From positions 1 through 64,000 of IMG/VR virus record IMGVR_UViG_3300045988_115635: 64,000 bases of DNA; one strand, 5' to 3'. Below are positions 1 through 37,767 of the stretch, one piece after another. How positions within the stretch are numbered: the first letter of the stretch is position 1; each line of letters opens with the position of its first letter. A model generated the notes under the pieces. It saw only the letters and a list, made by a program, of their open reading frames with translations. It was not told the origin of the DNA and made no database searches. The position numbers and the translations under genes were made by a program. The DNA is from a virus.

Positions 1-2868
1 TGGTCCTTGGATACCCTGGATACCCTGGCTACCCGTATCTCCTGTGTCTCCTTTGTCCCCTTTGTCCCCTTTAGGGATAACAAAGTTAAACACAGCAGCA
101 CTAGAAGAACCTGAATTAGTAACTTGTGCATTTGTACCAGCATCACCTGTTGTAACGTTGCCTACAGAAATGGTTGCAGCAGTACCAGTATCACCTTTTT
201 CACCGCGAGGAATACCAAAATTAAAGACAGCAGCACTTGTAGAACCTGAATTGTTTACATAGGCTTCTTCTGTACTGTCTACAATCTCAATTTCCCCAAC
301 GTCAACGGTAGCAGCGTTGCCTGTATCACCTTTCTCGCCTGCTGGTCCTTGGATACCCTGGGGTCCTTGATCTCCCTGGGGTCCTTGAACCCCTTGAATA
401 CCTTGGTCCCCTTTCTCGCCTTTAGGAATACCAAAATCAAAGATGGCTGCGCTAGAAGAACCAGAATTTGTGACAGTAGGAGTAGAACCAGGTTCTAATG
501 AAGTAACTTGACCTACCGCAATGGTTGCCGCATTTCCTGGAATACCCTGACTACCTGTATCACCCGTGTCTCCCTTGTCACCTTTGTCACCCTTTGGAAT
601 AGTGAATTTAAAGACAGCAGAGGTGCTAGAACCCGTATTTTCAACGTTTGCAGCAGTACCAGCTTCACCTGTTACTACATCACCAACAGAGATAGTAGCT
701 GCTTGACCTGGTATACCCTGGGGTCCCGTATCACCTGTATCACCTTTATCCCCTGTATCACCTTTAACGCCCTGAACACCTTGGGGGATAACAAAGTTAA
801 ATACAGCATCGGTGTTTGAGCCTGTATTAGTAACAGATGCTTGTGTACCAGCTTCACCCGTTGTAACGGTCCCAATGGTGATAGTAGAAGTATCGCCTTT
901 ATCACCTTGTGGACCTTTAATGTTGCCTACATCAATCCAATCACTATCAGCACTTGACCATACATACAAGCCACCATTGATTATGTATGCATCACCAACT
1001 TCACCCGTTGGGTGAGCTTGTTTTAAATCTTCATAGGAATCATAAGAGCCTAAGATAGTTACACTTGTACCATCATCACCCTTATCACCTTTAGGACCTT
1101 GTGCGCCCTTAGGAATGTTAAAGACTAATTGAGCGTCAGTAGTAGAACCATTGTTTACAACGCTTGCATTTTCGCCAGCGTCAAGTGTATTGGTAGAAAC
1201 TACAGTAATAGTAGCTGCTTGACCAGCAGGACCAGTAGCACCATCTTCGCCAGGAATACCTTGAATACCCTGCAAGCCTTGGGGAATACCAAATTTAAGT
1301 AAAGCAGCGTTAGAAGAACCTACGTTTTCTACAGTTGCATCGCTGCCAGCAGGTAAGGTTTCAACTGAACTAATGGCAATAGTAGCAGCTTGCCCCGCTT
1401 GCCCTGCTTGACCAGGTTCACCTTGTTCACCTTGATCACCTTTTTCACCCTTTGGAATTCCAAAGTTTAAAATAGCGTCAGTATTAGAACCTGTATTAGT
1501 AACAGTAGGTGTTTCGTCTGGTTCTAAGGCTACAACGGTACCAACGGTAACAGTTGCAGCGTCACCTTTTTCACCTTGTGGACCAGTTTCACCTTGTGGT
1601 CCTGGGTCCCCTTGAACACCCGCTGGTCCGCGCTCCCCGTCTAAACCGTCATTACCTTTAGGTCCCTGTGGAATAGTAAAAACAAGTTCAGCAGCACTTA
1701 GTGTACCTTCATTAGTAACGCTTGCTTGCGTTCCTGGTTTACCTGTAATTGTCTCTTTTACAGTAATAGTTGCAGATTGACCCGCTGGACCTGGCTCACC
1801 TGGCTCACCTTGGGGACCTTTTTCACCCTTTGGAATTCCAAAGTTTAAAATAGCGTCAGTATTAGAACCTGTATTAGTAACAGTAGGTGTTTCGTCTGGT
1901 TCTAAGGCTACAACGGTACCAACGGTAACAGTTGCAGCGTCACCTTTTTCACCTTGTGGACCAGTTTCACCTTGTGGTCCTGGGTCCCCTTGAACACCCG
2001 CTGGTCCGCGCTCCCCGTCTAAACCGTCATTACCTTTAGGTCCCTGTGGAATAGTAAAAACAAGTTCAGCAGCACTTAGTGTACCTTCATTAGTAACGCT
2101 TGCTTGCGTTCCTGGTTTACCTGTAATTGTCTCTTTTACAGTAATAGTTGCAGATTGACCCGCTGGACCTGGCTCACCTGGCTCACCTTGGGGACCTGGC
2201 TCACCTTGAATTCCTGGCTCGCCCTGTTCGCCCTTTTCGCCCTGTTCGCCCCGTTCGCCCCGTTCACCTTGAATCCCTTGGGGCCCTTGGTCCCCTTGGG
2301 GTCCTTGCTCGCCCTGGGGTCCCGCTGGTCCCGCTGGTCCCTGGGGTCCTCTAGGTAAATAAAAATTAAGAACAGGGTTTTTATTGTCACCCGTAATGGT
2401 TACTTGTGGAGTTTCCGATTCTTCAACTACGCCTATAGTGATATTCGGGACAAATGCACCTGATTCAATATCATTTTTAATATCAGCAATTTGTTCATAG
2501 ATTTGCTGAAGAATTTCATCGAACTTTTGTTCATTTTGAGAGATTTCATAGTTGTTTGCTCTCATAATTCTTCTAGCAAATGCTACATAAGCTACTCGGT
2601 AAAATTTTGTATTGTAGTCATAAGTCAAGAAGTCCATCAGTACATCATCAACAGTTTCATCTGATGGATTGACTACATAATGACAAGAAAGTTCGTTAGC
2701 TTTTATATCAACCTGACGTGTTAGATCAGGGTCAAATACCTCATCAATTTTGGCGCATTTAGCCGCTAAGTCAGTAACTTCTACAGCTTCATATAAAGAA
2801 CCATTCAAGCTATTAGTAAGCCAATCGCCAACCTTGATTGGTGTGCCTTTTGAATCTATTAGCATCTA
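1..2868 (-). CDS. collagen-like tail fibre protein, N-terminal ~955 codons; gene runs off the left window edge
   Basis: rc ATG at 2866-2868 preceded by AAAAGGAG; ~170-aa globular N-terminus then long Gly-X-Y tracts (GPQGPAGPAGPQGEQGPQGDQ...) interrupted by recurring ~45-aa modules ending ..LNFGIPKGEKG; no in-frame stop down to position 1; the plus-strand ORFs at 44-1015 and 2104-2358 are shadows of this gene. Confidence 0.8.
1441..2196. repeat. two near-identical tandem copies of a 378-bp (126-codon) unit inside the collagen-like gene
   Basis: 1441-1818 and 1819-2196 identical by eye over almost the entire unit; each encodes one collagen stretch plus one NFGIPKGEKG-type module. Confidence 0.8.
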
Positions 2869-2984: not shown

Positions 2985-3857
2985 ATGAAGGTTTGCAAGT
3001 TCATTGAAGATTACTACTACAAAAGAGCGGTAAAGGGTTTAAGAAAGTCAACGATTATAGGTTATAAATCTTCTATTGATTTATATATTTTGCCTACTTT
3101 TGGCAAAATGGATTTTGAAGATATTACCGTAGAAATGCTTGAAGACTGGATTGACGGTATAGAAAAAGAAGGTGCAGCTTTTAAGGCTTACAAAACCTTT
3201 AGACAAATCATTAGAAAAGCGATCGACTATGATGTATTTAAAGGCAAAGACCCAACTACTAAACATATTAAAGTAGCTAGAAAGCCAAGGCGTGAGCCTA
3301 AAATCTTAGATGGTCGTGAAGTTGGTGAATTATTAGAAGGGTTTAGAGGTCATTATTTAGAAGCTACGATTATTTGTGCCGTTACTCTAGGTTTAAGGCG
3401 CGGTGAAGCCTTTGGGCTTACTTGGGAGGATATTGATTTACGTTCTGGTAAGGTCAAAATTAAGCGTTCTTATCAAAAGATTGCAGGTGAGGTTTTGGTA
3501 TTACCTCCAAAAACCGAAAAATCTAAGCGTATTTGTTGGTTGCCAAAATCAGCTTTAGTAAGAATGCGTGATTTAGGTCGTGGTAAGACTGGTCGTATTT
3601 CTATTGTTGATCAACCAGATCAAATGGCTAAAGACTATAAAGAACACTGTAAGAAAAATAATTTACCGTATACATCTTTTACTAACTTACGTCATACCTG
3701 GGCAACATTAGCCTTAGAAGGCGGTGCTGATATTGCAACTATTGCCAATATGCTTGGTCACACCGATATTATGAATGCTTACAATCATTACATTGTTCCA
3801 AGAGATAAGATGTATAAGAAAACTCAAAAGATGGTTGACAATTTAATCAACTGGTAA
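2985..3857 (+). CDS. tyrosine site-specific recombinase (phage integrase/XerC-Rci family, ~290 aa); candidate shufflon recombinase
   Basis: ATG at 2985 with AAAAGGAG RBS (the track ORF 2910-3857 starts further upstream); C-terminal catalytic region LRHTWATLALEGGADIATIANMLGHTDIMNAYNHY with conserved R, HxxR and terminal Y; followed by a terminator; ~1 kb from the site array. Confidence 0.8.
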   Translation: MKVCKFIEDYYYKRAVKGLRKSTIIGYKSSIDLYILPTFGKMDFEDITVEMLEDWIDGIEKEGAAFKAYKTFRQIIRKAIDYDVFKGKDPTTKHIKVARKPRREPKILDGREVGELLEGFRGHYLEATIICAVTLGLRRGEAFGLTWEDIDLRSGKVKIKRSYQKIAGEVLVLPPKTEKSKRICWLPKSALVRMRDLGRGKTGRISIVDQPDQMAKDYKEHCKKNNLPYTSFTNLRHTWATLALEGGADIATIANMLGHTDIMNAYNHYIVPRDKMYKKTQKMVDNLINW

Positions 3858-3863
3858 ATCAAA

Positions 3864-3891
3864 GAGGGGTGATATTTCACCCCTCATTTTT
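3864..3891 (+). terminator. rho-independent terminator after the recombinase gene
   Basis: GAGGGGTGA-tatt-TCACCCCTC hairpin followed by ATTTTTT. Confidence 0.7.
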
Positions 3892-3894
3892 TAA

Positions 3895-4239
3895 TATGAA
3901 TCTTTATCCCTAGTAGAGGTTGAGGTTACACCATTTACTAATAACGTTCCTGACACGTCAACCTTTGAATGCTTTGCTGTGCCTGCATTACGCATGTGCT
4001 TTGTACGAGCACATATCGACGGTGCTAAAGGCGCTCATCCGTCTGGTCAGAGTTGGACAGTAGGAAACATCACTGACGAGGAGTATATCCCTGCAAACAA
4101 TTTCGATCTTTATGGATCGGCATCTAACAATGCAGCTATGCGTCCTTATGTGTGGTCGGATGGTCAGTTTGTTATCAAAAATCAGGGTCAAACACAAGCA
4201 GGAACGTCATTTAGTTTAAGCGGTTTTTGGTTCTACTAG
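3895..4239 (+). other. start-less open frame (115 codons) ending in TAG immediately before site Sa; possible decayed or silent C-terminal cassette
   Basis: open from the TAA at 3892; only a GTG at 3979 as start, no RBS; stop TAG 4237-4239 is one nt before GCATTCTATAT. Confidence 0.4.
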
Positions 4240-4256
4240 AGCATTCTATATCCCTG
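4240..4256 (+). repeat. shufflon site Sa (core TTCTATAT 4244-4251)
   Basis: GCATTCTATATCCCTG; follows TAG of the preceding frame. Confidence 0.7.
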
Positions 4257-4514
4257 ATCAAAACTGGCGAAGCTGTACTAAACAAGGGCGACAATACTAT
4301 CACGTTCAATCAGCCATTTCCTGCTGGTATGTATTACAACGGAGTAGCCGTTATTGCCGCTAACGCATCAGATCATGCAAGCGTCAATGGTAGAAGCGTA
4401 CAGGTTATAGAAGTCACAAGCGACCATATTAAGCTAAGGTTTCTATCCAGCTTTGATTCCATATCGCAAGGTAGCGTTAGATGGATTGCGGTTGCTACTA
4501 AGCAGGAGGGATAG
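4242..4514 (+). other. silent C-terminal cassette a (90 codons, begins HSI, no start codon, no RBS)
   Basis: CAT TCT ATA TCC... open to TAG 4512-4514, which abuts the next site; the track ORF 4227-4514 uses a TTG that reads through the site. Confidence 0.65.
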
Positions 4515-4529
4515 CATTCTATATACCAA
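4513..4529 (+). repeat. shufflon site Sb (core 4517-4524)
   Basis: TAG CATTCTATATACCAA. Confidence 0.7.
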
Positions 4530-4805
4530 TTTGAAGAATTTGATATTGACAGCGGGAGTGTTTCTCCTGGAACTTGGCTTACGATTGATGCACCAACAAA
4601 AGAAGGGTATATAGCAATATCAGCAACCTTTGTTGGAACAATAACAAGTGGAGGTTGGCAATGGATAATCAATAATCCGATATGTTTTCCTGAGTCTAAA
4701 TTAGCAAAAATACGTGTTGTAAACAATAACAATGCAAATGCTGCAATACTAGGTAAAATAATTGTCACGTATCTAAAATCTAAGCTTAACAATGATTCTC
4801 AATAA
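4515..4805 (+). other. silent C-terminal cassette b (96 codons, begins HSI)
   Basis: HSIYQFEEFDIDSG...ISATFVGTITSGGWQWIINNP...NNNNANAAILGKII..; stop TAA 4803-4805; homologous to cassette c. Confidence 0.65.
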
Positions 4806-4850
4806 AATAATTGAAAAACGAACAAATGTTCGAACTCAATAAAATAATTG
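4799..4850. promoter_or_regulatory. LexA/Cheo-box-like dyad CGAACAAATGTTCG (~4819-4832) flanked by CTCAATAAAATAATTGA palindromic arms
   Basis: exact match to the Firmicutes SOS-box pattern CGAAC-N4-GTTCG; one of six related copies in the window. Confidence 0.55.
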
Positions 4851-4862
4851 AGCAAAAAAAAT

Positions 4863-4884
4863 AACCCCCTCAATTGAGGGGGTT
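4863..4884. terminator. bidirectional rho-independent terminator downstream of the endolysin
   Basis: AACCCCCTC-aatt-GAGGGGGTT hairpin with an A-run before and a T-run after. Confidence 0.75.
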
Positions 4885-4890
4885 TTAATT

Positions 4891-6109
4891 TTAATAACGC
4901 AATACCTGACCAGGATAGATTGTGTAAGGTGAAGAAATACCATTCTTAGAAGCAATGGTTTTCCAATTTACGCCTAATTTCTGACCAATCTCTGACAAAG
5001 TATCACCTGATTTAACCGTATAAGTATGGTTAGAAGCAGATGAGCCAGAAGAACCAGGAATGGTGAGACGTTGACCAGGATAAATCAAGTTTACGTTAGT
5101 AATGCCGTTAGCAGATGCAATAGCATTTACAGTAGTACCGTAAGAAGATGCAATTCCTGATAAAGTATCGCCAGACTTTACGGTATACATTACGCCAGAA
5201 GAACCGCCGCCATTTACAATCTTCATAACCTCATCGTAGCGTGAACCTAATACGGTCTTACGCAAATTGCCATTACCGTAAACACCTTCCCAGGTTTCAT
5301 CAGCTAGGGTAGAAGCAGAAGAATTAGAAATATGGTTAATCATTTCTTGTACTTCATCGTAGCGTGAACCTAAAGCCTGCTTACGTGCATCACCATTACC
5401 ATAGTCACCTTGCATTACCTTAGCAACAAGGTCAATAGTACGACCTTCTGGGTCAGAGCCTGTTTCTGGGGTAGAAGGTGTAGGAACAGTAGCATTACCA
5501 GACGGGTCTGCATACTTCATCCATGCTTCAGCGTCCATGTAAGCCTTGTTAAGGTCAAGGTTTCCGCCGTAGCCATTCAATCTACCAGCAGATGAATACT
5601 GACGGATAGCACAGCTATAAGCACCTTCATTCCACGGAGTATCCTGATAGCCAGTAGTATTGTTATTTGCATACTGTGCAACCCATGTACCAGCATTTAA
5701 GCCTGATGCAGTGTCCCAGGGAAATACTGACTTAGAAGAATAAATCAAAGGCGTTACGTTTGTTCTATCCTTTACTCTCTGACAGAATTGGCGCAAATAC
5801 TCAACGTTGCCCCATGCACTGTTTTGACCAGATTCCCAGTCAGCACACAAAATACCTTTACCAATCCAATTGAGAATTGAATCTACAAAATGATCAGCTT
5901 CTGCTGTAGCATTGCCGCCAGAAATGTAATGATAAACGCCAAAAAGCTTACCAGCACTAATACACTGTTCTACCTGACGAACACAGTCGGGTGAAACATA
6001 TGATGTACCCTGGGTAGCCTTGCAGATTACAAAATCTGATGGAACTACAGCTAGGTTGATGCCATTTTGCCAATTTGAAACATCAATACCGTTCATTGCC
6101 ATAATTCGT
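4891..6109 (-). CDS. endolysin: GH25 muramidase + 2 CW_7-like repeats + 2 LysM domains
   Basis: start [12 protein letters not shown] with AAAGGAG RBS (the track ORF extends to 6135); GH25 N-terminus (GIDVSNWQ...[16 protein letters not shown]...GVYHY); repeats [21 protein letters not shown] and [21 protein letters not shown] (CW_7-like); two [15 protein letters not shown] LysM motifs. Confidence 0.9.
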
Positions 6110-6151
6110 TTTCTCCTTTCTTTGCAAAGAAACATACTTCAATTTTAAAAG

Positions 6152-6168
6152 TAGTTTTCTATATCGCA
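6152..6168 (+). repeat. shufflon site Se (core 6157-6164)
   Basis: TAG TTTTCTATATCGCAA immediately beyond the endolysin start region. Confidence 0.7.
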
Positions 6169-6478
6169 ATATGAATTAGAAGATTGTTCTAGTTTGGTAA
6201 CTGCAAAAGATAATTTCAGCGTTGTAGAAGCTAGAGTATTAAAGCTTGGTAACTTAAAAATGCTTTATATTTATGTTTCTTGTTCTAGCTTGCTAAGCAG
6301 TGGTACTAATATCAATGCGTTTAGCGTTTCTGGGGAACTTATTCCAAAACAGAAAATACCAATAAGTTCTGACACCGTAACTGGTTATATAGGTACAAAT
6401 GGTAATTCATGGATGACACTTCAGGTAGCAAGATCATCTAGTCAAAACATAGGTTGTTGTACATGTTTTTACATTTAG
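6155..6478 (+). other. silent C-terminal cassette e (107 codons, begins FSI)
   Basis: TTT TCT ATA TCG CAA... open to TAG 6476-6478, which abuts site Sd; the track ORF 6194-6478 (TTG start) is the same frame. Confidence 0.65.
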
Positions 6479-6492
6479 TTTTCTATATCCCA
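6476..6492 (+). repeat. shufflon site Sd (core 6481-6488)
   Basis: TAG TTTTCTATATCCCAC. Confidence 0.7.
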
Positions 6493-6826
6493 CTACTCAA
6501 CAACCGAAACACCAACGGGCAAAACCTGGATTGATGGCAAGCCGATCTACTGTAAAGTGATCAAGTTCGGCGCGATGACAGGCAACAATCGGTATACCAT
6601 AGCGCATGGTATTTCTTACGACACTATAGTGTCCTTTAGTGCTATTGCCCGCAACTCCACTAATAGTTACTTACCTCTTGCGCGTGTTGGATACAATGGC
6701 GACAATCAGATAGATGCGTCCTTAAACGGTTATGCGTATATCACTCCTGATAATGCAATCATCATTGGAGGCTCGCAGACCAACTACACAGGCGCTACCG
6801 TAATTATTGAGTACACCAAGGCTTAA
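6479..6826 (+). other. silent C-terminal cassette d (115 codons, begins FSI)
   Basis: FSISHYSTTETPTGKTWIDGKPIYCKVIKFGAMTGNN...IIEYTKA*; the track ORF 6557-6826 is its GTG-started tail; ends convergently on the stop of the 152-aa gene. Confidence 0.65.
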
Positions 6827-7281
6827 CTAAGTTTATACCCGATAACTTTAGTGATACCGAGTTTGTCCTGTTTTCGTCTTTCCATAGTGCCGTTGTTCGT
6901 AAAACCAAGTTCACCAACAGCATGGTCAGTGTTTAACGTGCATTGCGTTCCTGATATATTCATACCTTTATAAGCGAACCATAAGTAACCATAAGAAGTT
7001 GACGATGTTGCATTGATTCCGATGGTTTTCCCATTCGGATCAGCAATCCTTTGGGAACCACATATGCCATCATCGTGCTTCCAAAAGAACTCTAAGTAGT
7101 CGTAATTCGCCGCAGAATCGGAGAGCGTAATTGCGTCCTTGGTGCCTTGCTCGCTTTCAAAAAGAGTTTGGGATATAGAATCCCAGTTAGCTTCTAAAGT
7201 CGATAATCGCTGGTCAATCGCGTCTCCATCAATAATTAACTGTGTGTCACCGCTCGTATTTTTGCCATATACTTTACCCAT
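6823..7281 (-). CDS. expressed shufflon gene: 33-aa constant N-terminus + DSIS crossover + 115-aa variable C-terminal domain; putative receptor-binding/tail-fibre tip protein
   Basis: the only properly initiated gene in the region (AAAGGAG-8nt-ATG); codons 34-37 GAT TCT ATA TCC are the inverted copy of the site; N-terminus (IDQRLSTLEANW) predicted helical. Confidence 0.7.
   Translation of the reverse strand: MGKVYGKNTSGDTQLIIDGDAIDQRLSTLEANWDSISQTLFESEQGTKDAITLSDSAANYDYLEFFWKHDDGICGSQRIADPNGKTIGINATSSTSYGYLWFAYKGMNISGTQCTLNTDHAVGELGFTNNGTMERRKQDKLGITKVIGYKLS
7170..7184 (-). repeat. shufflon site S0, the only minus-orientation copy (core rc of 7174-7181), inside the 152-aa gene
   Basis: minus strand reads GGGATTCTATATCCC. 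Confidence 0.7.
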
Positions 7282-7314
7282 ATTTTTAACTCCTTTTAGA
7301 GGTGCTTTTAAAAA

Positions 7315-7343
7315 ATTATAGTAGATAGTTTTCTATATATCAA
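7315..7343 (-). promoter_or_regulatory. sigma-A-like promoter of the 152-aa gene: TTGATA-17-TATAAT, with the -35 overlapping site Sf
   Basis: -10 TATAAT = rc 7315-7320; -35 TTGATA = rc 7338-7343; 17-nt spacer. Confidence 0.5.
7326..7342 (+). repeat. shufflon site Sf (core 7331-7338)
   Basis: TAG TTTTCTATATATCAA immediately upstream of the 152-aa gene promoter. Confidence 0.7.
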
Positions 7344-7595
7344 AGTAAAACATATTCTAAAAGTTTGACAATTGGAGCTGGTGCAACAGGAGACTTTTCA
7401 GCAACTCTTGATACACCTGGTGGATATATGCCTGTAGGGGTTACAGCAATAACAACTGGGCAAGTAAAATGGACACTCGTTCAGTTCGAAATCAATGTTG
7501 AAAATAACTACCTAGTTGCTTCAATTCATAGTGTTGACACTTCTAGCAGAACATCAACTGTTGCTATGTCAGTAGCGTTTATAAAGGTGAGTTAG
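7329..7595 (+). other. silent C-terminal cassette f (88 codons, begins FSI)
   Basis: FSIYQSKTYSKSLTIGAGATGDF...AFIKVS*; the track ORF 7365-7595 (TTG) is the same frame; TAG 7593-7595 abuts site Sc. Confidence 0.65.
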
Positions 7596-7609
7596 CATTC
7601 TATAGGCTT
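7593..7609 (+). repeat. shufflon site Sc (core TTCTATAG 7598-7605, one mismatch)
   Basis: TAG CATTCTATAGGC. Confidence 0.6.
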
Positions 7610-7892
7610 TTATTTTGGTGTTCAAAGCGTAGATACTGGCAACATAGATTCAAACGTAAGTTCTTGGCAAACAATTCCCTATGTAGAGGGATATTTACCT
7701 GTTAGTGTTTGCTTTGTTGGATATTACACAAATGGTTCAAGATGGATTGTAAGTAACCCTATGGAAATAACCGATAATGAAAGTCACATAACGTTAGTAA
7801 GAATGTTTAATAACAATGATACGGTTTCTGCTGCTAAAGGTGATTTAGAGATTATATATATAAAAAGATCGTTGTTTGAAAACCTTAGCTAG
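7596..7892 (+). other. silent C-terminal cassette c (98 codons, begins HSI)
   Basis: HSIGFYFGVQSVDTGN...VCFVGYYTNGSRWIVSNP...NNNDTVSAAKGDLEIIYIKRSLFENLS*; homologous to cassette b; not in the ORF track because it has no start. Confidence 0.65.
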
Positions 7893-8199
7893 TTTCAGTA
7901 GGTACAGCAATAAGAGTAACGCTATCGGGAGCGTCAGAAACATCACCAACGTATACTTCTTTAGAGTTCTGCATAGCGGTGTTAATCATCGTTTGAATTT
8001 GGGTTTGGTCCAAGTATTGAGCAGGTGAATAGTCCTGTAAAATTTCTTTAGTATTAGCATCACGTCTGACTACAACAGGTGTTGGAATACCGTTAACAAC
8101 TTTAACCCCATACATAATTTCTTGTATGGGGTGTGAAGTATCATCTACTACATAACCATTAGAAAGTAGTACGTCTATGCCTGTTGTGCTTTCTGACAT
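7885..8199 (-). CDS. hypothetical protein (104 aa)
   Basis: ORF; tight coupling with the upstream gene. Confidence 0.55.
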   Translation of the reverse strand: MSESTTGIDVLLSNGYVVDDTSHPIQEIMYGVKVVNGIPTPVVVRRDANTKEILQDYSPAQYLDQTQIQTMINTAMQNSKEVYVGDVSDAPDSVTLIAVPTETS

Positions 8200-8624
8200 T
8201 AGTCTACGTGAATTTCTTTCATCTCACCGTTGATATTTTTAATTCTAAGACCGCTCACGTGCTCCCAGCCGTCCGTTTCTAAAGAATTAGGAGAGTTAAT
8301 CGCTTTTGAGTAAACTGCCGCCTTAGAAACGCTTAGATTCCTTCTGGCGTATATTTCAACACCTGCGTAAGAACCAACGTAAGCTTCTTCATCTAAAGGA
8401 TTATCACCAATCTGTTCTAATCCTAACATCTGATAAAGCTGCTCTAGTGGTATGACTTTTACAGTATCGTCATACTCATTGCGTCCTACATATTGTACCT
8501 GAACTTCATCATCACCAACTTCAAGCACAATCATTTTTTTATATACGCCGCCTGGCATAAAATACGGGTCTGAAAAATCTTCAGGCAAGAATTCTGCGCC
8601 AGGTTTAATATCATCGTAATTCAA
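8199..8624 (-). CDS. hypothetical protein (141 aa)
   Basis: ORF; overlapping start/stop with neighbours. Confidence 0.55.
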   Translation of the reverse strand: MNYDDIKPGAEFLPEDFSDPYFMPGGVYKKMIVLEVGDDEVQVQYVGRNEYDDTVKVIPLEQLYQMLGLEQIGDNPLDEEAYVGSYAGVEIYARRNLSVSKAAVYSKAINSPNSLETDGWEHVSGLRIKNINGEMKEIHVD

Positions 8625-8821
8625 CGTTTATCACCAGCCAAAAAAGCAAGACTAAATAAAGCAGCAACCATAACAGTTAAACAAGCTTCTACTACACCTT
8701 GTGAAGCTATGATAACAGCTATGATTGCTATAACAATAAAAGAAGGAAACCTAATATCTTTTGTACGCCTTGAATTTTGAGCGATCTTCTTATAACGCTC
8801 GTATGCCTGTTTAGTAGTCAT
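8621..8821 (-). CDS. small membrane protein (66 aa); holin candidate
   Basis: long hydrophobic core FPSFIVIAIIAVIIASQGVVEACLTVMVAALFSLAFLAG with charged ends. Confidence 0.45.
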   Translation of the reverse strand: MTTKQAYERYKKIAQNSRRTKDIRFPSFIVIAIIAVIIASQGVVEACLTVMVAALFSLAFLAGDKR

Positions 8822-8884
8822 TGTAAAAACCTACTTTCTGCCCTGTAAAAAAGCATAAAGAAAAATAGGCGGTTTCGCTAGTTA

Positions 8885-9142
8885 CTAAAGCAGGCTTACT
8901 CTTTTTATAAGTCCGTTTTCTTCTTTGTAAATACCGAACTTATTTACTAATGATTGAATATCCTTGAAGTACATGGTAGGTCCGTCATTCATAGCTACAA
9001 CAATATAGCCATTAGATACTGAAAACACATCAGCTTGAAACTCAAAACCATTTTCAAAGAAATACACCTTGTTGTCATAAGGTATAAAAGTATCGTTACC
9101 TTTCCAAACAAGCGTAGCGTCTAAAATTTCGTATTTAGTCAT
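8885..9142 (-). CDS. hypothetical protein (85 aa)
   Basis: ORF. Confidence 0.5.
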   Translation of the reverse strand: MTKYEILDATLVWKGNDTFIPYDNKVYFFENGFEFQADVFSVSNGYIVVAMNDGPTMYFKDIQSLVNKFGIYKEENGLIKRVSLL

Positions 9143-9339
9143 TGTATTTTCTCCAAGTCTAACCTCGATGTGATTCTTGCCTGTAAGTTTCTTTCATCAA
9201 AGCAATGGTTTACTACTGTAGCTTTGTGCTTCTTGCCATTGAGTACGTATTGAATGGTGTTTCGTTTACGACCAATAACTTCAATGATCTCACCATCAAG
9301 GGTTTTATACTTCTTACCCACTTCAAACTTACTAGCCAT
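9139..9339 (-). CDS. hypothetical protein (66 aa)
   Basis: ORF, overlaps the downstream start by 4 nt. Confidence 0.5.
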   Translation of the reverse strand: MASKFEVGKKYKTLDGEIIEVIGRKRNTIQYVLNGKKHKATVVNHCFDERNLQARITSRLDLEKIQ

Positions 9340-9527
9340 AATTTAACCTCCTTATACAGCAAGGTTAGCATTTGTAAAAATATGTGTAAAGTAAAATGTA
9401 AAAGAAAACTGCACGATGCTTTAGACGTACCAAAGAGAGAGGGAGAAAATAGGCATAAGCACCGTGCAGCTATATTTATTATTTACGATGATTCTGTTTT
9501 TCGATACTGACAAAATAAAAAGGTCCT

Positions 9528-9619: not shown

Positions 9620-9910
9620 CTATAGCTTGTTGTATTTTCTAAACTTATTGCGCTTCTTAAAGCGCCTGTATTTTCTGCTGTAAGTTCTTAGAATTTCGTC
9701 TAACATTAAGCAGTTTGTTTGCTCAACAGTTTCTGGGAGGGTAGTCAGATAAGGGTAATGTTTCTTATCGTCTATCAAAGTTTTAAAGATTAAATCTAGC
9801 GCGAATTGAGCATCTATAGGAGGGTCGCATAGTTCAGACTTATTGCCTTTGTACCAATTATCAATTTGGCTTTGAAACCCTTCAAAAGATATTTCTTCGT
9901 CCCATTCCAT
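9620..9910 (-). CDS. hypothetical protein (96 aa)
   Basis: ORF. Confidence 0.5.
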   Translation of the reverse strand: MEWDEEISFEGFQSQIDNWYKGNKSELCDPPIDAQFALDLIFKTLIDDKKHYPYLTTLPETVEQTNCLMLDEILRTYSRKYRRFKKRNKFRKYNKL

Positions 9911-9918
9911 GACTACCT

Positions 9919-9994
9919 TCTAAAAAAATGGTGCGCCTGGTAGGATTCGAACCTACAACCTTCAGATTAGAAGTCTGCTTCTCTTTCCGTTGAG
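9919..9994 (-). tRNA. tRNA-Arg (anticodon UCU), CCA encoded
   Basis: rc = GCGCCTG-TA-TCTC-AACGGAAA-GAGA-A-GCAGA-CTTCTAA-TCTGA-AGGTT-GTAGG-TTCGAAT-CCTAC-CAGGCGC-A-CCA; 7-bp acceptor stem, GTTCGAAT T-loop, anticodon loop CUUCUAA. Confidence 0.85.
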
Positions 9995-10398
9995 ATACAG
10001 GCGCAAATAATGTAAAGCTTTAACCCTTAACCTTGTCTTTACTGACAGACACCCAATATTGTCTACTAGTCCGTCTTCCCTCGCCCGTTCGCTGGTACTT
10101 TATGCTGTATTTTCCCTGCAAACACTAAGCCCGTGCTCTGTGGTTAACAGCCTATCACGCTGCTCCACGCACGTACTCTTTGCTTTAACAGCAATCAGCA
10201 AAGAGGTGATTAAAGACCCTCCTAACTTTTTGAGCCTATAGAGACAAAGAAAGTAGGAGGGCGAGTTTATACCTTGCGTCCTCCTACTAACGATTAGGAG
10301 GGTTTTTGAACCCAAAAACAATATACGAATTGTAAAACAATTTGTCAATTAAAAATTGAGAAAATGTGATAATCTTTACTTACCAAATAGGAGGAATC

Positions 10399-11685: not shown

Positions 11686-12108
11686 TTAGCCGAATTCAAG
11701 TTTAAACATATCTAAGAGCGAATTGTTATCATAAGTAAACCCGTACAAGCATTGCAGCAAGTTTAGATGAAATACTCTTATCATTCGCTCGTAATCTTGC
11801 TCGTAGTTATTCTCAAATAAGAATTCTACATTACAACCTACTGTTGCTTCATTTTCATCTGGTTTTTCTATTTTATGCTCTTTAGCAAAGGTTTCAACGC
11901 TACTAATTTTGTCACCTTTTACAACTACACTTAATGTCGCTACCAAAAATGGTTCTACGCCGTCAACCTCATTTATAAATTGCAAAAGTTCAGCATCAAC
12001 CTTTTTCACATAGCAGTGATCTCTTTCTAGTGACAGAAAAGAGCCTACCCTACCCATAAGATCATCGGCTATCAGTGGTAGTTGTTTTTCTATAAATGCT
12101 TTGTCCAT
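11686..12108 (-). CDS. hypothetical protein (140 aa)
   Basis: ORF. Confidence 0.5.
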   Translation of the reverse strand: MDKAFIEKQLPLIADDLMGRVGSFLSLERDHCYVKKVDAELLQFINEVDGVEPFLVATLSVVVKGDKISSVETFAKEHKIEKPDENEATVGCNVEFLFENNYEQDYERMIRVFHLNLLQCLYGFTYDNNSLLDMFKLEFG

Positions 12109-13115
12109 ACTCTCTCTATTCTCTCACCAATCCATCTAATGACAGGTACTGCCATAGAGTTACCTAACGCCTTGTAACGCCTTGAATCTGATGCTGGCTT
12201 ACCTTTATAGGGAATTTGCGTATACCCGTCTGAAAAGCCCTGTAAACGCTCGCATTCGGTAGGAGTTAAGTATCTTACTGTATCTTCTTGCAAAACTACA
12301 GGACTAGAACCACCAACTTTTAACGCACCGCAAAGTTCTTCGTTGCAAGAAGCTTTAGAGGTTAAATCAGCTAGACAAATAACAGCGTGTCTATCAGTAG
12401 CAGTAACAGTAAACGCACCATCAATTTCAGGGTTTCTCACACCTGTATGATGTCCGCCATTTTCTAGCTTTCTACCTATGATATTGCCTGCTATCTCATA
12501 GCAGCTTTCTCTAAGGCTCGTTCCATTCTTATTGGCAATTTCCTTCCTCGCGTCCTTACTCTCTTTAACACCCCCCCCACACTCTTCGGGGTCAAACAAT
12601 ACTTCTGCGCTGGTTGTGTCTCCAAGGCTTCCGACAAGGTAGATACGCTTGCGTCTCTGGGGTAATCCGAAAAATTGCGCATCCAATACTCGCCACGATA
12701 AGCAATACCCGCTTTCTTCCAACCCCCTAAGCAATTGTCCGAAAGCATTCCCGTGTTCGACCGATAACGCCCCTGGGACGTTTTCCCAGATGAGAAACTT
12801 AGGCAAGATTTCGTGAATACATCGAATGTATTCGAACATAAGCCCTGATTCTCCTTTAAGCCCTTCTCGCTTTCCTGCATATGAGAATGACTGGCAAGGT
12901 GTTCCTCCGATAACGATGTCTGTTTTTCCACGGTATTTGCTCCAATCAATTTGGGTTGTATCACCTAAGTTAGGTACGTTTGGATAGTGATATTTAAGTA
13001 ATTCACAGCAGTAATCATCAATTTCAGAAAATGCTACAGGCTCCCAACCCAAAGGCTTGAAAGCTACTGTAGCTGCTTCTATACCACTAAAAGTAGAGAT
13101 GTATTTTAGGTTCAT
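12090..13115 (-). CDS. DNA (cytosine-5)-methyltransferase
   Basis: motif I FSGIEA, motif IV GGTPCQSFS, ENVPG motif. Confidence 0.85.
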   Translation of the reverse strand: MNLKYISTFSGIEAATVAFKPLGWEPVAFSEIDDYCCELLKYHYPNVPNLGDTTQIDWSKYRGKTDIVIGGTPCQSFSYAGKREGLKGESGLMFEYIRCIHEILPKFLIWENVPGALSVEHGNAFGQLLRGLEESGYCLSWRVLDAQFFGLPQRRKRIYLVGSLGDTTSAEVLFDPEECGGGVKESKDARKEIANKNGTSLRESCYEIAGNIIGRKLENGGHHTGVRNPEIDGAFTVTATDRHAVICLADLTSKASCNEELCGALKVGGSSPVVLQEDTVRYLTPTECERLQGFSDGYTQIPYKGKPASDSRRYKALGNSMAVPVIRWIGERIERVWTKHL

Positions 13116-34557: not shown

Positions 34558-37500
34558 TTACTCTGTCTTAATTGGCATAAAGTGTTCAAGAATATAATTA
34601 TCTTCATCATTTCTAAGTTGCTTTTTCAACTCAAAAATAAAATATGATTCATTTTTTAAGTACATGCGTATTTTTTCGAATATGTCAGTAAACGCTACAA
34701 CTTCAAGTTCGAACCCCTCACTTTCGCACTTAATAAAAGCCATAGGTTTACCCTTTTTTGTGGTGATACGTCTAAAACTCGTAACCATAGCAAGCGTAGC
34801 GAACTTTTCTGTATAGTCCACAAAGTTAATCGCGTTACCATTCTTTAGCGCGTCTTTGTATGGTTTCACAATTTCTAATACCTCTGCGTACGGGTCATAA
34901 GTAATAGGCATACCTATTAAGTCTTTTTCGTTTTCAATTATTTCTTTTTTAGCGTAAGCAGGTTGTTCTTCCGTAAACCTTTCTTGGAGCGATTCTCCGA
35001 AAAGGTTTCGAGCAGTGTCGTTAGCTTCATACCTAAAAAGTAGGTCCTTAGAATTTGGATACCACTCACGGAAAAACCCTGCCATTATTAATGATTTCAT
35101 AACGCCAGAATTAGCACCTGATCTTGTTACAAAATCATCAAAATCTGTATAAGGAGCGTTTTCAGCAATCTTTACTACTGCTTTATCACCTACGCCGCGC
35201 AATGAACCAATGCCAATAGCAATAGTTTCATCATCTAAAATAACCCAATCATCAGCTATGTTTGTCACAGTAGGCATAACAATTTTAATACCGTTATCTC
35301 TAGCTTCACGCATGTACCTTGGTAAATCTTCCGATGGTACTGTTTGAAAGCATGAACAATAAAACTCAATAGGGTAGTTATATTTCATCCATGCCGTCCA
35401 AAAAGCTAAGACAGCATAAGCGTATGAATGAGCCTTATTAAAGGAGTAAGAACCAGAAGCCTTGATTTGATTAAAAATTGTTTCTGCTTGCTGTACTGAT
35501 ATACCGCTGTGGTCAACACAACCTTGAACAAATTTAGGCTCTTCTTTTTCCATCTCCTTTAGCTTCTTTTTGCCAATAATGGCTCTCATGTGGTCTGCTT
35601 CTAATGGAGTATAACCAGCCAAAGCACGGCAAATACTCATAGCTTGTTCTTGGTAAACAATTACGCCATAAGTCTCTTTTAGAATAGGCTCTAATTGTGG
35701 TACTACGTATTCAACAGGTTCGCGCCCTGTTTTACGATTGATAAATACTTGCAACATACCAGCCAAAATAACACCTGGTCGATACAACGCTAAAATTGTT
35801 GATAGGTCCATAATGTTATGAGGTAATAATTGCATCGCACATTGTGTAATGTTCTTACCTGATAATTGGAATACGCCTAAAGTATTTCCTGTCTTAAATA
35901 GGTTCCACACACCCTCTTGTGCATCATCTTCAGTAAGCGAATAAAAATCAATGTCCACACCATGACGCTCCTTTACCATTCTTTGGGCGTTGGTTAGCGA
36001 ACTTAAATTTCGCAAACCTAAGAAGTCTGCTTTTAAGAAACCTAAACTTTCAATAGCTACTTTATCGAACTGTGAAACAATATCACCTGTTTTAAGTGAC
36101 AGCCTGGTAGGCATTGCGTTAGATAACTCAATAGGAGAAATAACATAACCACAAGCATGTTGTCCCCATTGTCTAGGAACACCAATCAGGCTAGAAGTGT
36201 GCTTAAACACAGTAGGAAAACGTCCCATCATGCTTTCTAGGTACGTTCTATCCTTATCTTCTAGCAAGTCTAAATGATCATGCCATTCTTTAGGATTCTT
36301 TAGGTTTCTATCAAATACATCAAGAATCTTAGAAACATTTAGTGATTCTTGGTAAGGTATTCTGTAGTAGCGTGCTAGGTCCTGAAAAGCGTTTTTAATC
36401 TTAAAGGTTCCAACTGTACCAACAGCGCAAACATGATCTTTGCCGTACTTTTCATTACAATATTCAACAACATCATGACGTTCTTTATCAGGAAAATCTA
36501 AGTCAATGTCTGGTAAAGAATCAAGCCTGCCCTCATTCAAAAATCGCTGAAAAATAAGACCCTTCCCCATTGGGTCGACCTCTGTAATGTCAGTTGCATA
36601 GCAAAGAATAGAAGCGGTACATGAACCACGTCCAGGACCTACCAGCATATGTTCTTTTGCATATTTATTGTAGTCAGACACTAAAAGAAAATAATCAGCT
36701 AGACCATTATCAAAAATAATGGGCCATTCATTTTCTGTCATTTCTTTAGCATAAGGTACAACTTTTTTAAGGTCCCCGCCCTTGTATTGAATTGTGCCAA
36801 TTTCTTCACCATCAAAGACTTCACAGCCGCCAACTTTTCTAAACAATCCCTTAGCACACAAGTATTTAAGATAGTCGGTACTATCCTTGCCTGCGTCTAT
36901 CCACTTTTGCGGTAAAGGGTATTTAGGTACTTTATGAGATTTATCAAAGTCATAAGGTACTACACGGCTTAATATGCTATCTACCCCATCGAAACAACGT
37001 TCTACATCACCAAGGTATTCAAGGCGTTTTCTTACGTCTTGTTCGTCCATCATGTAATAATCTGCTCGCATACGCATATGATCTTCGTCATAGTGTTTAT
37101 GCATATTGCAGCCAAGCATGATATTTTGAAGTTCGCTATCTTCACGCCTTACGTAATGAGAATCAATAGCATAAATAGTTTTTAAGTCGTGCTTTTTAGC
37201 AAAGTTCATCAACCAAAGATTTACCTTGCGTTGTTCAGGCTCGTTGTTAGTATGAATTTCTACTACAAAATCATCGAAAATAGGCTTTAGCATATCCAAG
37301 AAATATAAAGCCATGTTTTCATCATCATTTTTAGCAGCTACAGACAAAGGACCTGCCAAACAAGCAGAACCACACACTACGCCTTTTCTTCTTGTTCCTA
37401 AATCTTCAACGTAAGTATTGGTGTAAGCGTCTTTACCTTCTTCATGTAGCCATGACTTAGAAGATATATCCCAAACGTTATGTAGACCTTCTTCAGTAGT

Positions 37501-37767
37501 TGCCCAAAGAGTTAAATGGAAACCCTTGCGCGATGAATTGTGATATTTACCATCGCGCAAATATAACTCTGTTCCAAGAATAGGAATTAAGCCGCGCTTT
37601 TTAGCTTCCGTGTATATGTAGTAGTGACCTACACAATGCCCGTGGTCTGTTACAGCAACGTATTTGCTACCAATTTCTAACGCCCTATCGCAAATATCAG
37701 ATGGACTAGCTAGACCATCTAAGAAGCTGTAATAGCTGTGACAGTGTAAATTAGCAAATTCATGCAT
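34558..37767 (-). CDS. dnaE: DNA polymerase III alpha subunit (DnaE-type, N-terminal PHP domain)
   Basis: LHCHSYYSFLDGLASP PHP motif; 1069 aa; polymerase core motifs; start anchored by RBS GAGGT. Confidence 0.85.
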   Translation of the reverse strand: MHEFANLHCHSYYSFLDGLASPSDICDRALEIGSKYVAVTDHGHCVGHYYIYTEAKKRGLIPILGTELYLRDGKYHNSSRKGFHLTLWATTEEGLHNVWDISSKSWLHEEGKDAYTNTYVEDLGTRRKGVVCGSACLAGPLSVAAKNDDENMALYFLDMLKPIFDDFVVEIHTNNEPEQRKVNLWLMNFAKKHDLKTIYAIDSHYVRREDSELQNIMLGCNMHKHYDEDHMRMRADYYMMDEQDVRKRLEYLGDVERCFDGVDSILSRVVPYDFDKSHKVPKYPLPQKWIDAGKDSTDYLKYLCAKGLFRKVGGCEVFDGEEIGTIQYKGGDLKKVVPYAKEMTENEWPIIFDNGLADYFLLVSDYNKYAKEHMLVGPGRGSCTASILCYATDITEVDPMGKGLIFQRFLNEGRLDSLPDIDLDFPDKERHDVVEYCNEKYGKDHVCAVGTVGTFKIKNAFQDLARYYRIPYQESLNVSKILDVFDRNLKNPKEWHDHLDLLEDKDRTYLESMMGRFPTVFKHTSSLIGVPRQWGQHACGYVISPIELSNAMPTRLSLKTGDIVSQFDKVAIESLGFLKADFLGLRNLSSLTNAQRMVKERHGVDIDFYSLTEDDAQEGVWNLFKTGNTLGVFQLSGKNITQCAMQLLPHNIMDLSTILALYRPGVILAGMLQVFINRKTGREPVEYVVPQLEPILKETYGVIVYQEQAMSICRALAGYTPLEADHMRAIIGKKKLKEMEKEEPKFVQGCVDHSGISVQQAETIFNQIKASGSYSFNKAHSYAYAVLAFWTAWMKYNYPIEFYCSCFQTVPSEDLPRYMREARDNGIKIVMPTVTNIADDWVILDDETIAIGIGSLRGVGDKAVVKIAENAPYTDFDDFVTRSGANSGVMKSLIMAGFFREWYPNSKDLLFRYEANDTARNLFGESLQERFTEEQPAYAKKEIIENEKDLIGMPITYDPYAEVLEIVKPYKDALKNGNAINFVDYTEKFATLAMVTSFRRITTKKGKPMAFIKCESEGFELEVVAFTDIFEKIRMYLKNESYFIFELKKQLRNDEDNYILEHFMPIKTE

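Follow-up and report, generated by a model that had tools for sequence, protein, structure and literature searches.

A probable Rin-type phage shufflon in which the promoter-bearing start of a gene appears to invert together with a neighbouring cassette

The window (the whole 64,000-nucleotide stretch of viral DNA that was analysed) contains a locus that reads, from left to right, as a collagen-like tail-fibre gene on the minus strand, a recombinase gene and cassettes g, a and b on the plus strand, a bidirectional terminator, and an endolysin gene on the minus strand. Beyond the endolysin gene lie cassettes e and d on the plus strand, the expressed gene on the minus strand, site Sf, cassettes f and c on the plus strand, and the next operon on the minus strand. 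The features are as follows.

2985–3857, plus strand: tyrosine recombinase gene (290 aa), a Rin-like invertase without an arm-binding domain
3900–4239, plus strand: cassette g, 112 codons, with a degenerate site ATCTTTAT at 3900–3907
4244–4514, plus strand: site a (4244–4251) and cassette a, 89 codons
4517–4805, plus strand: site b (4517–4524) and cassette b, 95 codons
4863–4884, no strand: hairpin of a bidirectional terminator separating cassette b from the endolysin gene, detected by the scan on both strands
4891–6135, minus strand: endolysin gene (Pfam GH25, CW_7 and LysM), within the invertible region
6142–6169, minus strand: promoter-like TTGCGA-16-TAAAAT upstream of the endolysin gene, straddling site e (9/12 in the scan)
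6157–6478, plus strand: site e (6157–6164) and cassette e, 106 codons
6481–6826, plus strand: site d (6481–6488) and cassette d, 114 codons
6823–7180, minus strand: cassette d0, the C-terminal 118 codons and the currently expressed cassette
7168–7185, minus strand: site S0, TGGGA-TTCTATA-TCCCA (core 7173–7180), a natural-inversion breakpoint
7181–7330, minus strand: constant module, with 34 codons (7181–7281), ribosome-binding site (RBS) AAGGAG at 7290–7295 and −10 element TATAAT at 7315–7320
7331–7338, plus strand: site Sf, core TTCTATAT, left arm TAGTT
7332–7595, plus strand: cassette f, 87 codons, which always travels with the constant module
7338–7343, minus strand: −35 element TTGATA, 17 nt from the −10 element, coinciding with the Sf right-arm half-site and with f codons 2–4
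7598–7892, plus strand: site Sc (TTCTATAG, 7598–7605) and cassette c, 97 codons

The expressed gene spans 152 codons on the minus strand (7281..6823), in which the 34 constant codons are followed by d0, and its ATG (7279–7281) is preceded by AAGGAG 8 nt upstream. Eight in-frame C-terminal cassettes flank the constant module, g, a, b, e, d and d0 to its left and f and c to its right, and counterparts of several of them are found fused to the constant part in related sequences (a homologue of g in P0011 and P0017, e in P0034, and d-like cassettes in P0032 and P0018). Cassette a matches Pfam Gp53-like_C at 7.4e-5, slightly under the gathering score. The endolysin unit, having its own promoter-like element as well as the bidirectional terminator, looks built to work in either orientation.

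The collagen-like tail-fibre gene (1–2865, minus strand; >955 aa) extends beyond the window, varies in length among relatives and contains a near-identical internal duplication of ~375–440 bp (~1399–1839 versus 1777–2214). On the other side of the locus, a 96-aa ORF at 9620–9910 (minus strand) has a precomputed Pfam Tad8 (PF25189) match in the contig gene tables and may encode an anti-defence protein, and a tRNA-Arg(TCT) gene (9929–10004, minus strand) lies near genes for a DNA methylase (12090–13115), an HNH_3 endonuclease and a dUTPase. The genes further along the window, including those for DNA polymerase III alpha (34558–37767) and Baseplate_J, are consistent with a large phage of virulent type.

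The recombinase matches Pfam Phage_integrase (4.6e-14) and Phage_int_SAM_3, and is assigned to integrase by PHROG. Its domains are Phage_integrase and the SAM-like core-binding domain only, as in the armless invertases of Rin-type shufflons. Its nearest relatives in deposited phages belong to Bifidobacterium phage PMBT6 and Siphoviridae ctl617 (38–39% identical over 98–99% of the length), whose loci carry repeated rix-like TAGC[AT]TTCCGTAACCC sites together with a TGGGATTCCGTAACC site within the expressed gene.

S0, whose core TTCTATAT occupies 7173–7180 on the minus strand within codons 34–37 of the expressed gene, consists of perfect TGGGA...TCCCA palindromic arms flanking a 7-bp asymmetric overlap. 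The extended site AGYWTTCTATA is found six times, always on the plus strand and always within 4240–7604, against 0.47 copies expected; none of 100 shuffles matched this count, indicating that the array did not arise by chance. These six copies open the silent cassettes a, b, e, d, f and c, each an in-frame unit of 87–114 codons, and a stop codon ends each cassette frame just ahead of the next site. The consensus obtained from position weights over 59 distinct junctions is T[AG]GN[AT]-TTCTATA-TCCC, and because the TTCTATA overlap is asymmetric, DNA between inverted sites is expected to be inverted. From S0 to Sf there are 150 bp between the 8-bp cores (7181–7330), or 158 bp from centre to centre. 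The initial annotation of this region had described inverted S0 and Sf sites around the start codon, the RBS and a −10 element at 7315–7320, and a constant region with cassettes to either side; the minus-strand sequence and the cassette positions bear this out, with two corrections, in that S0 had been placed on the right strand but one base off (7174–7181), and the enclosed unit had been given as 145 bp.

We note that S0 can also form a perfect hairpin (6-bp stem, 5-nt loop; 7168–7185, minus strand) followed by a T-rich run, which the scan scores as terminator-like. We note too that in some relatives the TAG stop ahead of a site has been lost (read as Q, for example), giving run-on ORFs across several silent cassettes (593 aa in L007, 1769–3550, which is P0001; 161 aa in P0024) that gene callers report as artificial multi-cassette 'proteins'.

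The expressed protein has no Pfam or PHROG match in profile searches; a sister cassette, P0006, matches H_lectin at 3e-10. The expressed protein, as modelled by AlphaFold (pLDDT 69 overall, >84 at the N-terminus), consists of a hairpin, a helix over residues 19–36 and then a beta-sandwich formed by d0. In a Foldseek search the best matches of this model were the C-terminal domains of phage K gp144, which we take to be a receptor-binding protein, and phi812 baseplate chains (E 3.5e-4 to 1.2e-3). The hairpin-helix-beta-sandwich order would place the crossover at the junction of neck and head of a small predicted receptor-binding protein, and we think it likely, taking the explanation as a whole, that the shufflon swaps the C-terminal 86–118 residues of such a tail protein. 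Searches of public data with the constant peptide showed the 34-residue N-terminus joined to at least 27 different C-termini, among them those of P0028 and P0029 (LL), P0030, P0027 and P0007, which are cassettes located upstream of the promoter in other lineages.

Two further observations concern the constant part. One variant, P0039, is without the ANWDSIS junction residues (LSTLE is followed directly by EQVVESGHEDGW) and occurs in one Logan lineage with 10 member sequences; an imprecise or deleted junction seems to have become fixed there. In a different, smaller phage (L009, 3272–4237) a d/d0 cassette pair with 92.5% DNA identity and the same core TTCTATAT is attached, in the opposite orientation (constant+d), to an unrelated constant part (41 aa, MAYTKQVWRD...) that is without an upstream site. 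Judging from this pair on an unrelated constant part, d/d0-type cassette pairs seem to move between phages.

To compare arrangements of the locus we used ~25 related ENA and Logan contigs reached by exact-protein look-ups. A megablast of 3000–9500 against the phage collection gave zero matches, and no relative was found by scanning IMG/VR with the DNA pattern GCTAACTGGGATTCTATAT and recombinase peptide patterns, or JGI metagenome contigs with the recombinase peptide patterns. All of the isomers compared are assembled metagenome strains (96–97% identical), some of low coverage, and the switching is seen between strains. The isomer in the window is common to five contigs. In L014–L019 (whose protein is present in 12 contigs) the block 7174–7604 is inverted at 100% identity, both flanks are collinear at 96–97%, and the gene reads rightwards into a cassette absent from the window (n) and then c. 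In L026–L028, which come from three samples, the block 7172–7604 is inverted at 99.8% identity, giving the recombinant junctions f-tail/d0 and const/LL; both parental junctions, const/d0 and f-tail/LL, occur together in L008. The two parental and the two recombinant junctions were all recovered, which is the mark of a reciprocal crossover within the core. The flipped units thus comprise the constant part, Sf and f (431–433 bp), with breakpoints in the site cores, in two independent lineages and 15 contigs. As judged from these comparisons, the constant module is flipped in nature, together with cassette f.

Other junctions are reassorted as well. The e-tail, f-tail and g-tail left arms are each paired with 3–5 different right arms across loci, the b arm is paired with three different left arms among relatives, and the c arm, at the Sc site that forms the right-hand limit of the inverted blocks, is paired with 5. 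Relative to the window, L023 and L024 carry an inverted block at 4517–6492 that includes b, the endolysin gene and e, and the e-tail/d0 junction is present. We had considered a 'master site' model, in which the constant site is the only possible partner, and dropped it because the e-tail/d0 junction of L023 needs a crossover between cassettes. At Sc, where the window has the junction f-tail/c, L008, L012, L014 and L023 hold 1–3 additional cassettes between f and c; these match site-specific deletion between direct-repeat sites (or the reverse insertion), and cassettes may be lost or gained there. Finally, the Logan contig L017, which also counted against the 'master site' model, begins at the very point where two inverted sites part in their arms (cccag-tcgc versus cccag-caaa), and it is one of three contigs from independent samples (L017, L013 and L004) that end 0–5 nt from a site core, which suggests within-sample heterogeneity at the sites.

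The promoter of the expressed gene straddles Sf. The initial annotation had put the −35 element across or outside the Sf crossover, and the second of these applies: TTGATA adjoins the 7-bp crossover region on its outside. In an automatic scan of 3800–8300, TTGATA/TATAAT was the top promoter-like pair, with 11/12 consensus positions. The promoter stretch, 30 nt running from TTGATA to TATAAT, shows 100% conservation across 8 lineages in which the body of f and the synonymous sites of the constant part vary, and conservation of the promoter and of the first ~36 nt of f far exceeds that of the f body. In the flipped isomers (L014–L019 and L026–L028) the gene and the neighbouring operon are convergent, and upstream of the gene there is nothing that reads in the same direction. 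Since the flipped gene opposes all of its neighbours, a promoter within the f-Sf-constant unit would be needed, and we infer from the sequence and from the orientation of the flipped isomers that the predicted promoter within this unit drives the gene. The linkage of f to the promoter has most likely been kept by selection, because the first codons of f supply the −35 element; the simplest reading is that recombinants in which the −10 element is parted from a usable −35 element lose expression and are selected out.

Two rival explanations were weighed first. The alternative arrangements might be assembly artefacts at short repeats, given that all of the comparison data are metagenome assemblies and that some have low coverage. 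We regard this as highly improbable, since the shared repeats are only ~13–16 bp and thus below assembler k-mers, the identical flipped forms occur in 12 and 3 contigs from different samples and from differing sources (Logan assemblies, and ENA contigs bearing either SPAdes-style NODE names or scaffold names), and the junctions are exact and reciprocal. Alternatively, TTGATA/TATAAT might not be a working promoter, and transcription of the gene might come instead from read-through out of the late operon upstream, transcripts from a distal late promoter being what the initial annotation had named as evidence against its own promoter pair. In the isomer of the window the gene is indeed codirectional with the upstream genes, and the terminator-like hairpins on the minus strand from 7885 to 7343 are all weak; against read-through, the isomers in which the gene converges on that operon are majority forms in 15 contigs, and the promoter stretch is invariant across the 8 lineages. 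Read-through therefore strikes us as improbable, though not to the degree that artefacts are.

The harder question is whether the 150-bp module is ever flipped without f. The initial annotation had this small segment inverting between S0 and Sf as a regular event, each flip acquiring a new −35 element, so that the level of the receptor-binding protein would depend on the isomer. S0 and Sf are inverted, match the consensus in full and lie about 15 helical turns apart (158 bp), and in Clostridioides difficile the tyrosine recombinase RecV inverts a 154-bp segment (PMC5386303), from which a loop of the S0–Sf size appears feasible. When modelled, recombination of S0 with Sf yields an in-frame constant+f fusion and a rebuilt promoter, TTGGGA-17-TATAAT (10/12), and implies the junctions GCTAACTGGGATTCTATATATCAAAGTAAAAC (constant/f) and AGAGTTTGGGATATAGAAAACTATCTACTATAAT (d0 arm/promoter), whereas recombination of S0 with Sc gives constant+c in one step and leaves the promoter unchanged. 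The small flip is thus required for f only, and not, as had been supposed, for both right-hand cassettes; that a rightward flip of the module serves to reach right-hand cassettes is seen in the flipped relatives. The frame of f is open in 6 variants (87 codons, no indels, up to 26% nucleotide divergence), an outcome with a chance of ~0.075 under random substitution (67 changes), and f itself lacks a conserved start codon. The dN/dS of f is 0.34–0.70 in most comparisons and ~2.4–2.75 between near-identical variants (9–10 differing sites); the lower range stands against 0.7–1.0 when the most divergent pairs (window versus L010/L012) are read in the other frames, and in other pairs and the near-identical variants the frames are not cleanly separated. 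Variants of cassette c have too few differences for dN/dS. Because the f frame has been kept open and its dN/dS is mostly below 1, f is probably expressed at times, and the small flip probably occurs at some level. L004, a SPAdes contig with 2.9x coverage, ends inside Sf at 7336; this end lies 2 nt from the expected branch point and could weakly hint at heterogeneity at Sf.

Against regular flipping of the module alone, exact look-ups of constant+f and constant+c came back empty under conditions in which the native protein was found, and neither f nor c occurs in any of the constant fusions, of which at least 27 are distinct. The Sf junction, tatagtagatagtt-TTCTATAT-atcaaag, is the only combination seen for the promoter-side arm in 23 loci of 8 lineages and several isomers; Sf is never seen recombined among these 23 loci, whereas the other junctions reassort. 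The segment that the initial annotation had called invertible is flipped in 15 contigs, but always as the 431–433-bp unit with f and never as 150 bp alone, and the claim that every flip rebuilds the promoter fails, since the −35 element is carried along with f in the observed flips. Regular small flips with isomer-dependent expression are accordingly doubtful, in our estimation. We give about the same limited credence to an opposite reading, in which Sf is no longer a crossover site at all, f is retained only for its −35 or upstream element (and perhaps as a recombinase site that modulates transcription), and the module flips only as the constant+f unit. This reading accounts for the invariant Sf junction, the missing f fusions and the strong conservation of the f start relative to the f body, and for a constraint on f that is looser than that on the expressed cassettes e (dN/dS 0.28–0.56) and d0 (0.08–0.30). 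The same frozen arrangement recurs at the endolysin promoter, where the site-e junction (ttttaaaagtagtt-TTCTATAT-cgcaat) is unchanged in 16 loci; yet site e does recombine, having been captured by the constant part in P0034. The Sf core, moreover, is complete and its TAGTT left arm is identical to that of active sites, and the open frame of f also speaks against a site retired from recombination. We consider it likely that the region 2985–7892 is a Rin-type shufflon, belonging to a phage of roughly 105 kb with ~104–112 kb contigs, in which the module flips together with f and the small flip is rare.

In the mechanism that we propose, a self-contained module of ~150 bp, carrying the −10 element, the RBS and 34 codons for a hairpin and helical neck, would sit amid the cassette array, bounded by S0 on its 3′ side and by Sf immediately ahead of the −10 element. 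Recombination of S0 with a left-hand site would change the cassette and leave the module in place. Recombination of S0 with a right-hand site distal to f would flip the module and f together, so that the gene reads rightwards with its whole promoter intact, which is the form observed. The flip of the module alone, between S0 and Sf, would be the sole route to f; it is sterically plausible and has gone unobserved, and so would be rare or counter-selected. A more ambitious view, which we consider unlikely, is that the split promoters of the predicted receptor-binding protein (at Sf) and of the endolysin (at site e) act by design as a filter that couples recombination state, protein level and phage viability. 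The −10 element would then belong to the module side and the −35 element would be at once the first codons of a cassette and a recombinase half-site, expression would be kept only if the incoming arm supplies TTGnnA (as d0, b, e and f do), and recombinase bound at the site could gate transcription too.

The closest known counterpart is the Rin shufflon of Bifidobacterium prophages, in which the rix site is TTCCCTAACCC (Mavrich et al. 2018; PMC6109161) and a constant part of 168 residues is fixed at one end of the array with rin at the other (PMC6109161). As in Rin, a phage-encoded armless tyrosine recombinase adjoins tandem cassettes of ~90–115 codons for the C-terminus of a receptor-binding protein, a predicted one in the present case, a short asymmetric site that is rare elsewhere stands ahead of each cassette, and one more site lies within the expressed gene, in the constant N-terminal part, inverted relative to those of the silent cassettes. 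The natural variants are likewise inversions with breakpoints inside the sites. Site layouts correspond as well: TAGCA-TTCTATA-TCCC and, in the constant part, TGGGA-TTC... here, versus TAGC[AT]-TTCCGTA-ACCC and TGGGA-TTCCGTAACC in PMBT6 and ctl617. Rin shufflons are reportedly present in Eggerthella lenta prophages too. Unlike in Rin, the constant part here is just 34 codons long with its own promoter and RBS, an endolysin gene with a promoter-like element and a bidirectional terminator rides in the invertible DNA, and the constant part is internal to the array, flanked on either side by sites and cassettes, and is inverted in nature (L014–L019 and L026–L028). The architecture is, as read from these sequences, a new one, of Rin-type design but with a constant part that is not fixed at the array end.

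Other multiple-inversion systems share some of these traits. In the shufflon of plasmid R64, Rci acts at sfx sites in pilV, and the constant part of pilV lies outside the shufflon at one end and is not known to move. The two systems have in common multiple inversions by a tyrosine recombinase that join a constant N-terminus to alternative C-termini, and a 7-bp asymmetric spacer with one arm well conserved and the other loosely; they differ in that R64 varies a plasmid pilus adhesin and the present locus a phage protein, and in that the constant segment here moves and does not lie outside the invertible cluster. At the sap locus of Campylobacter fetus, known from the work of Dworkin and Blaser, a promoter segment is said to invert alone or with neighbouring cassettes. 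There too a single promoter-bearing segment lies between opposed cassettes and expresses those on either side, the same topology as the flipping of constant+f, although sap inversion is RecA-dependent, uses long 5′ homologies and serves a bacterial S-layer, whereas the phage locus has a dedicated recombinase and 7-bp overlaps. The Gin, Cin and Min systems (Mu, P1 and p15B) also change host range by inverting alternative tail-fibre C-termini, Min at multiple sites; they do so with serine invertases, an enhancer and Fis, and with the constant part and promoter fixed outside, whereas the sole recombinase of the present locus is of the tyrosine type. The C. difficile flgB switch resembles the S0–Sf interval in that a tyrosine recombinase, RecV, acts on a 154-bp regulatory segment between inverted repeats (PMC5386303). 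It acts as an ON/OFF switch within a 5′ UTR and exchanges no coding cassettes, and the present locus does not fall into this fimS/flgB type, the 150-bp segment being inverted only with f, and never alone, in the assembled contigs.

Phage shufflons driven by tyrosine recombinases have been described with a constant gene fixed at one end. At this locus the gene start itself (half of the promoter, the RBS and 34 codons) would be a mobile cassette that can face either way, opening silent, putative receptor-binding domains on both sides to one phage, in a shufflon that tolerates an endolysin gene within the shuffled DNA. The known designs for programmed variation of host range in uncultured phages are thereby extended. 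In the frozen sites that straddle promoters there is a testable case of selection on which recombination products survive, and a single 34-residue adaptor that public assemblies show with at least 27 alternative tips constitutes a natural library for the engineering of receptor-binding proteins.
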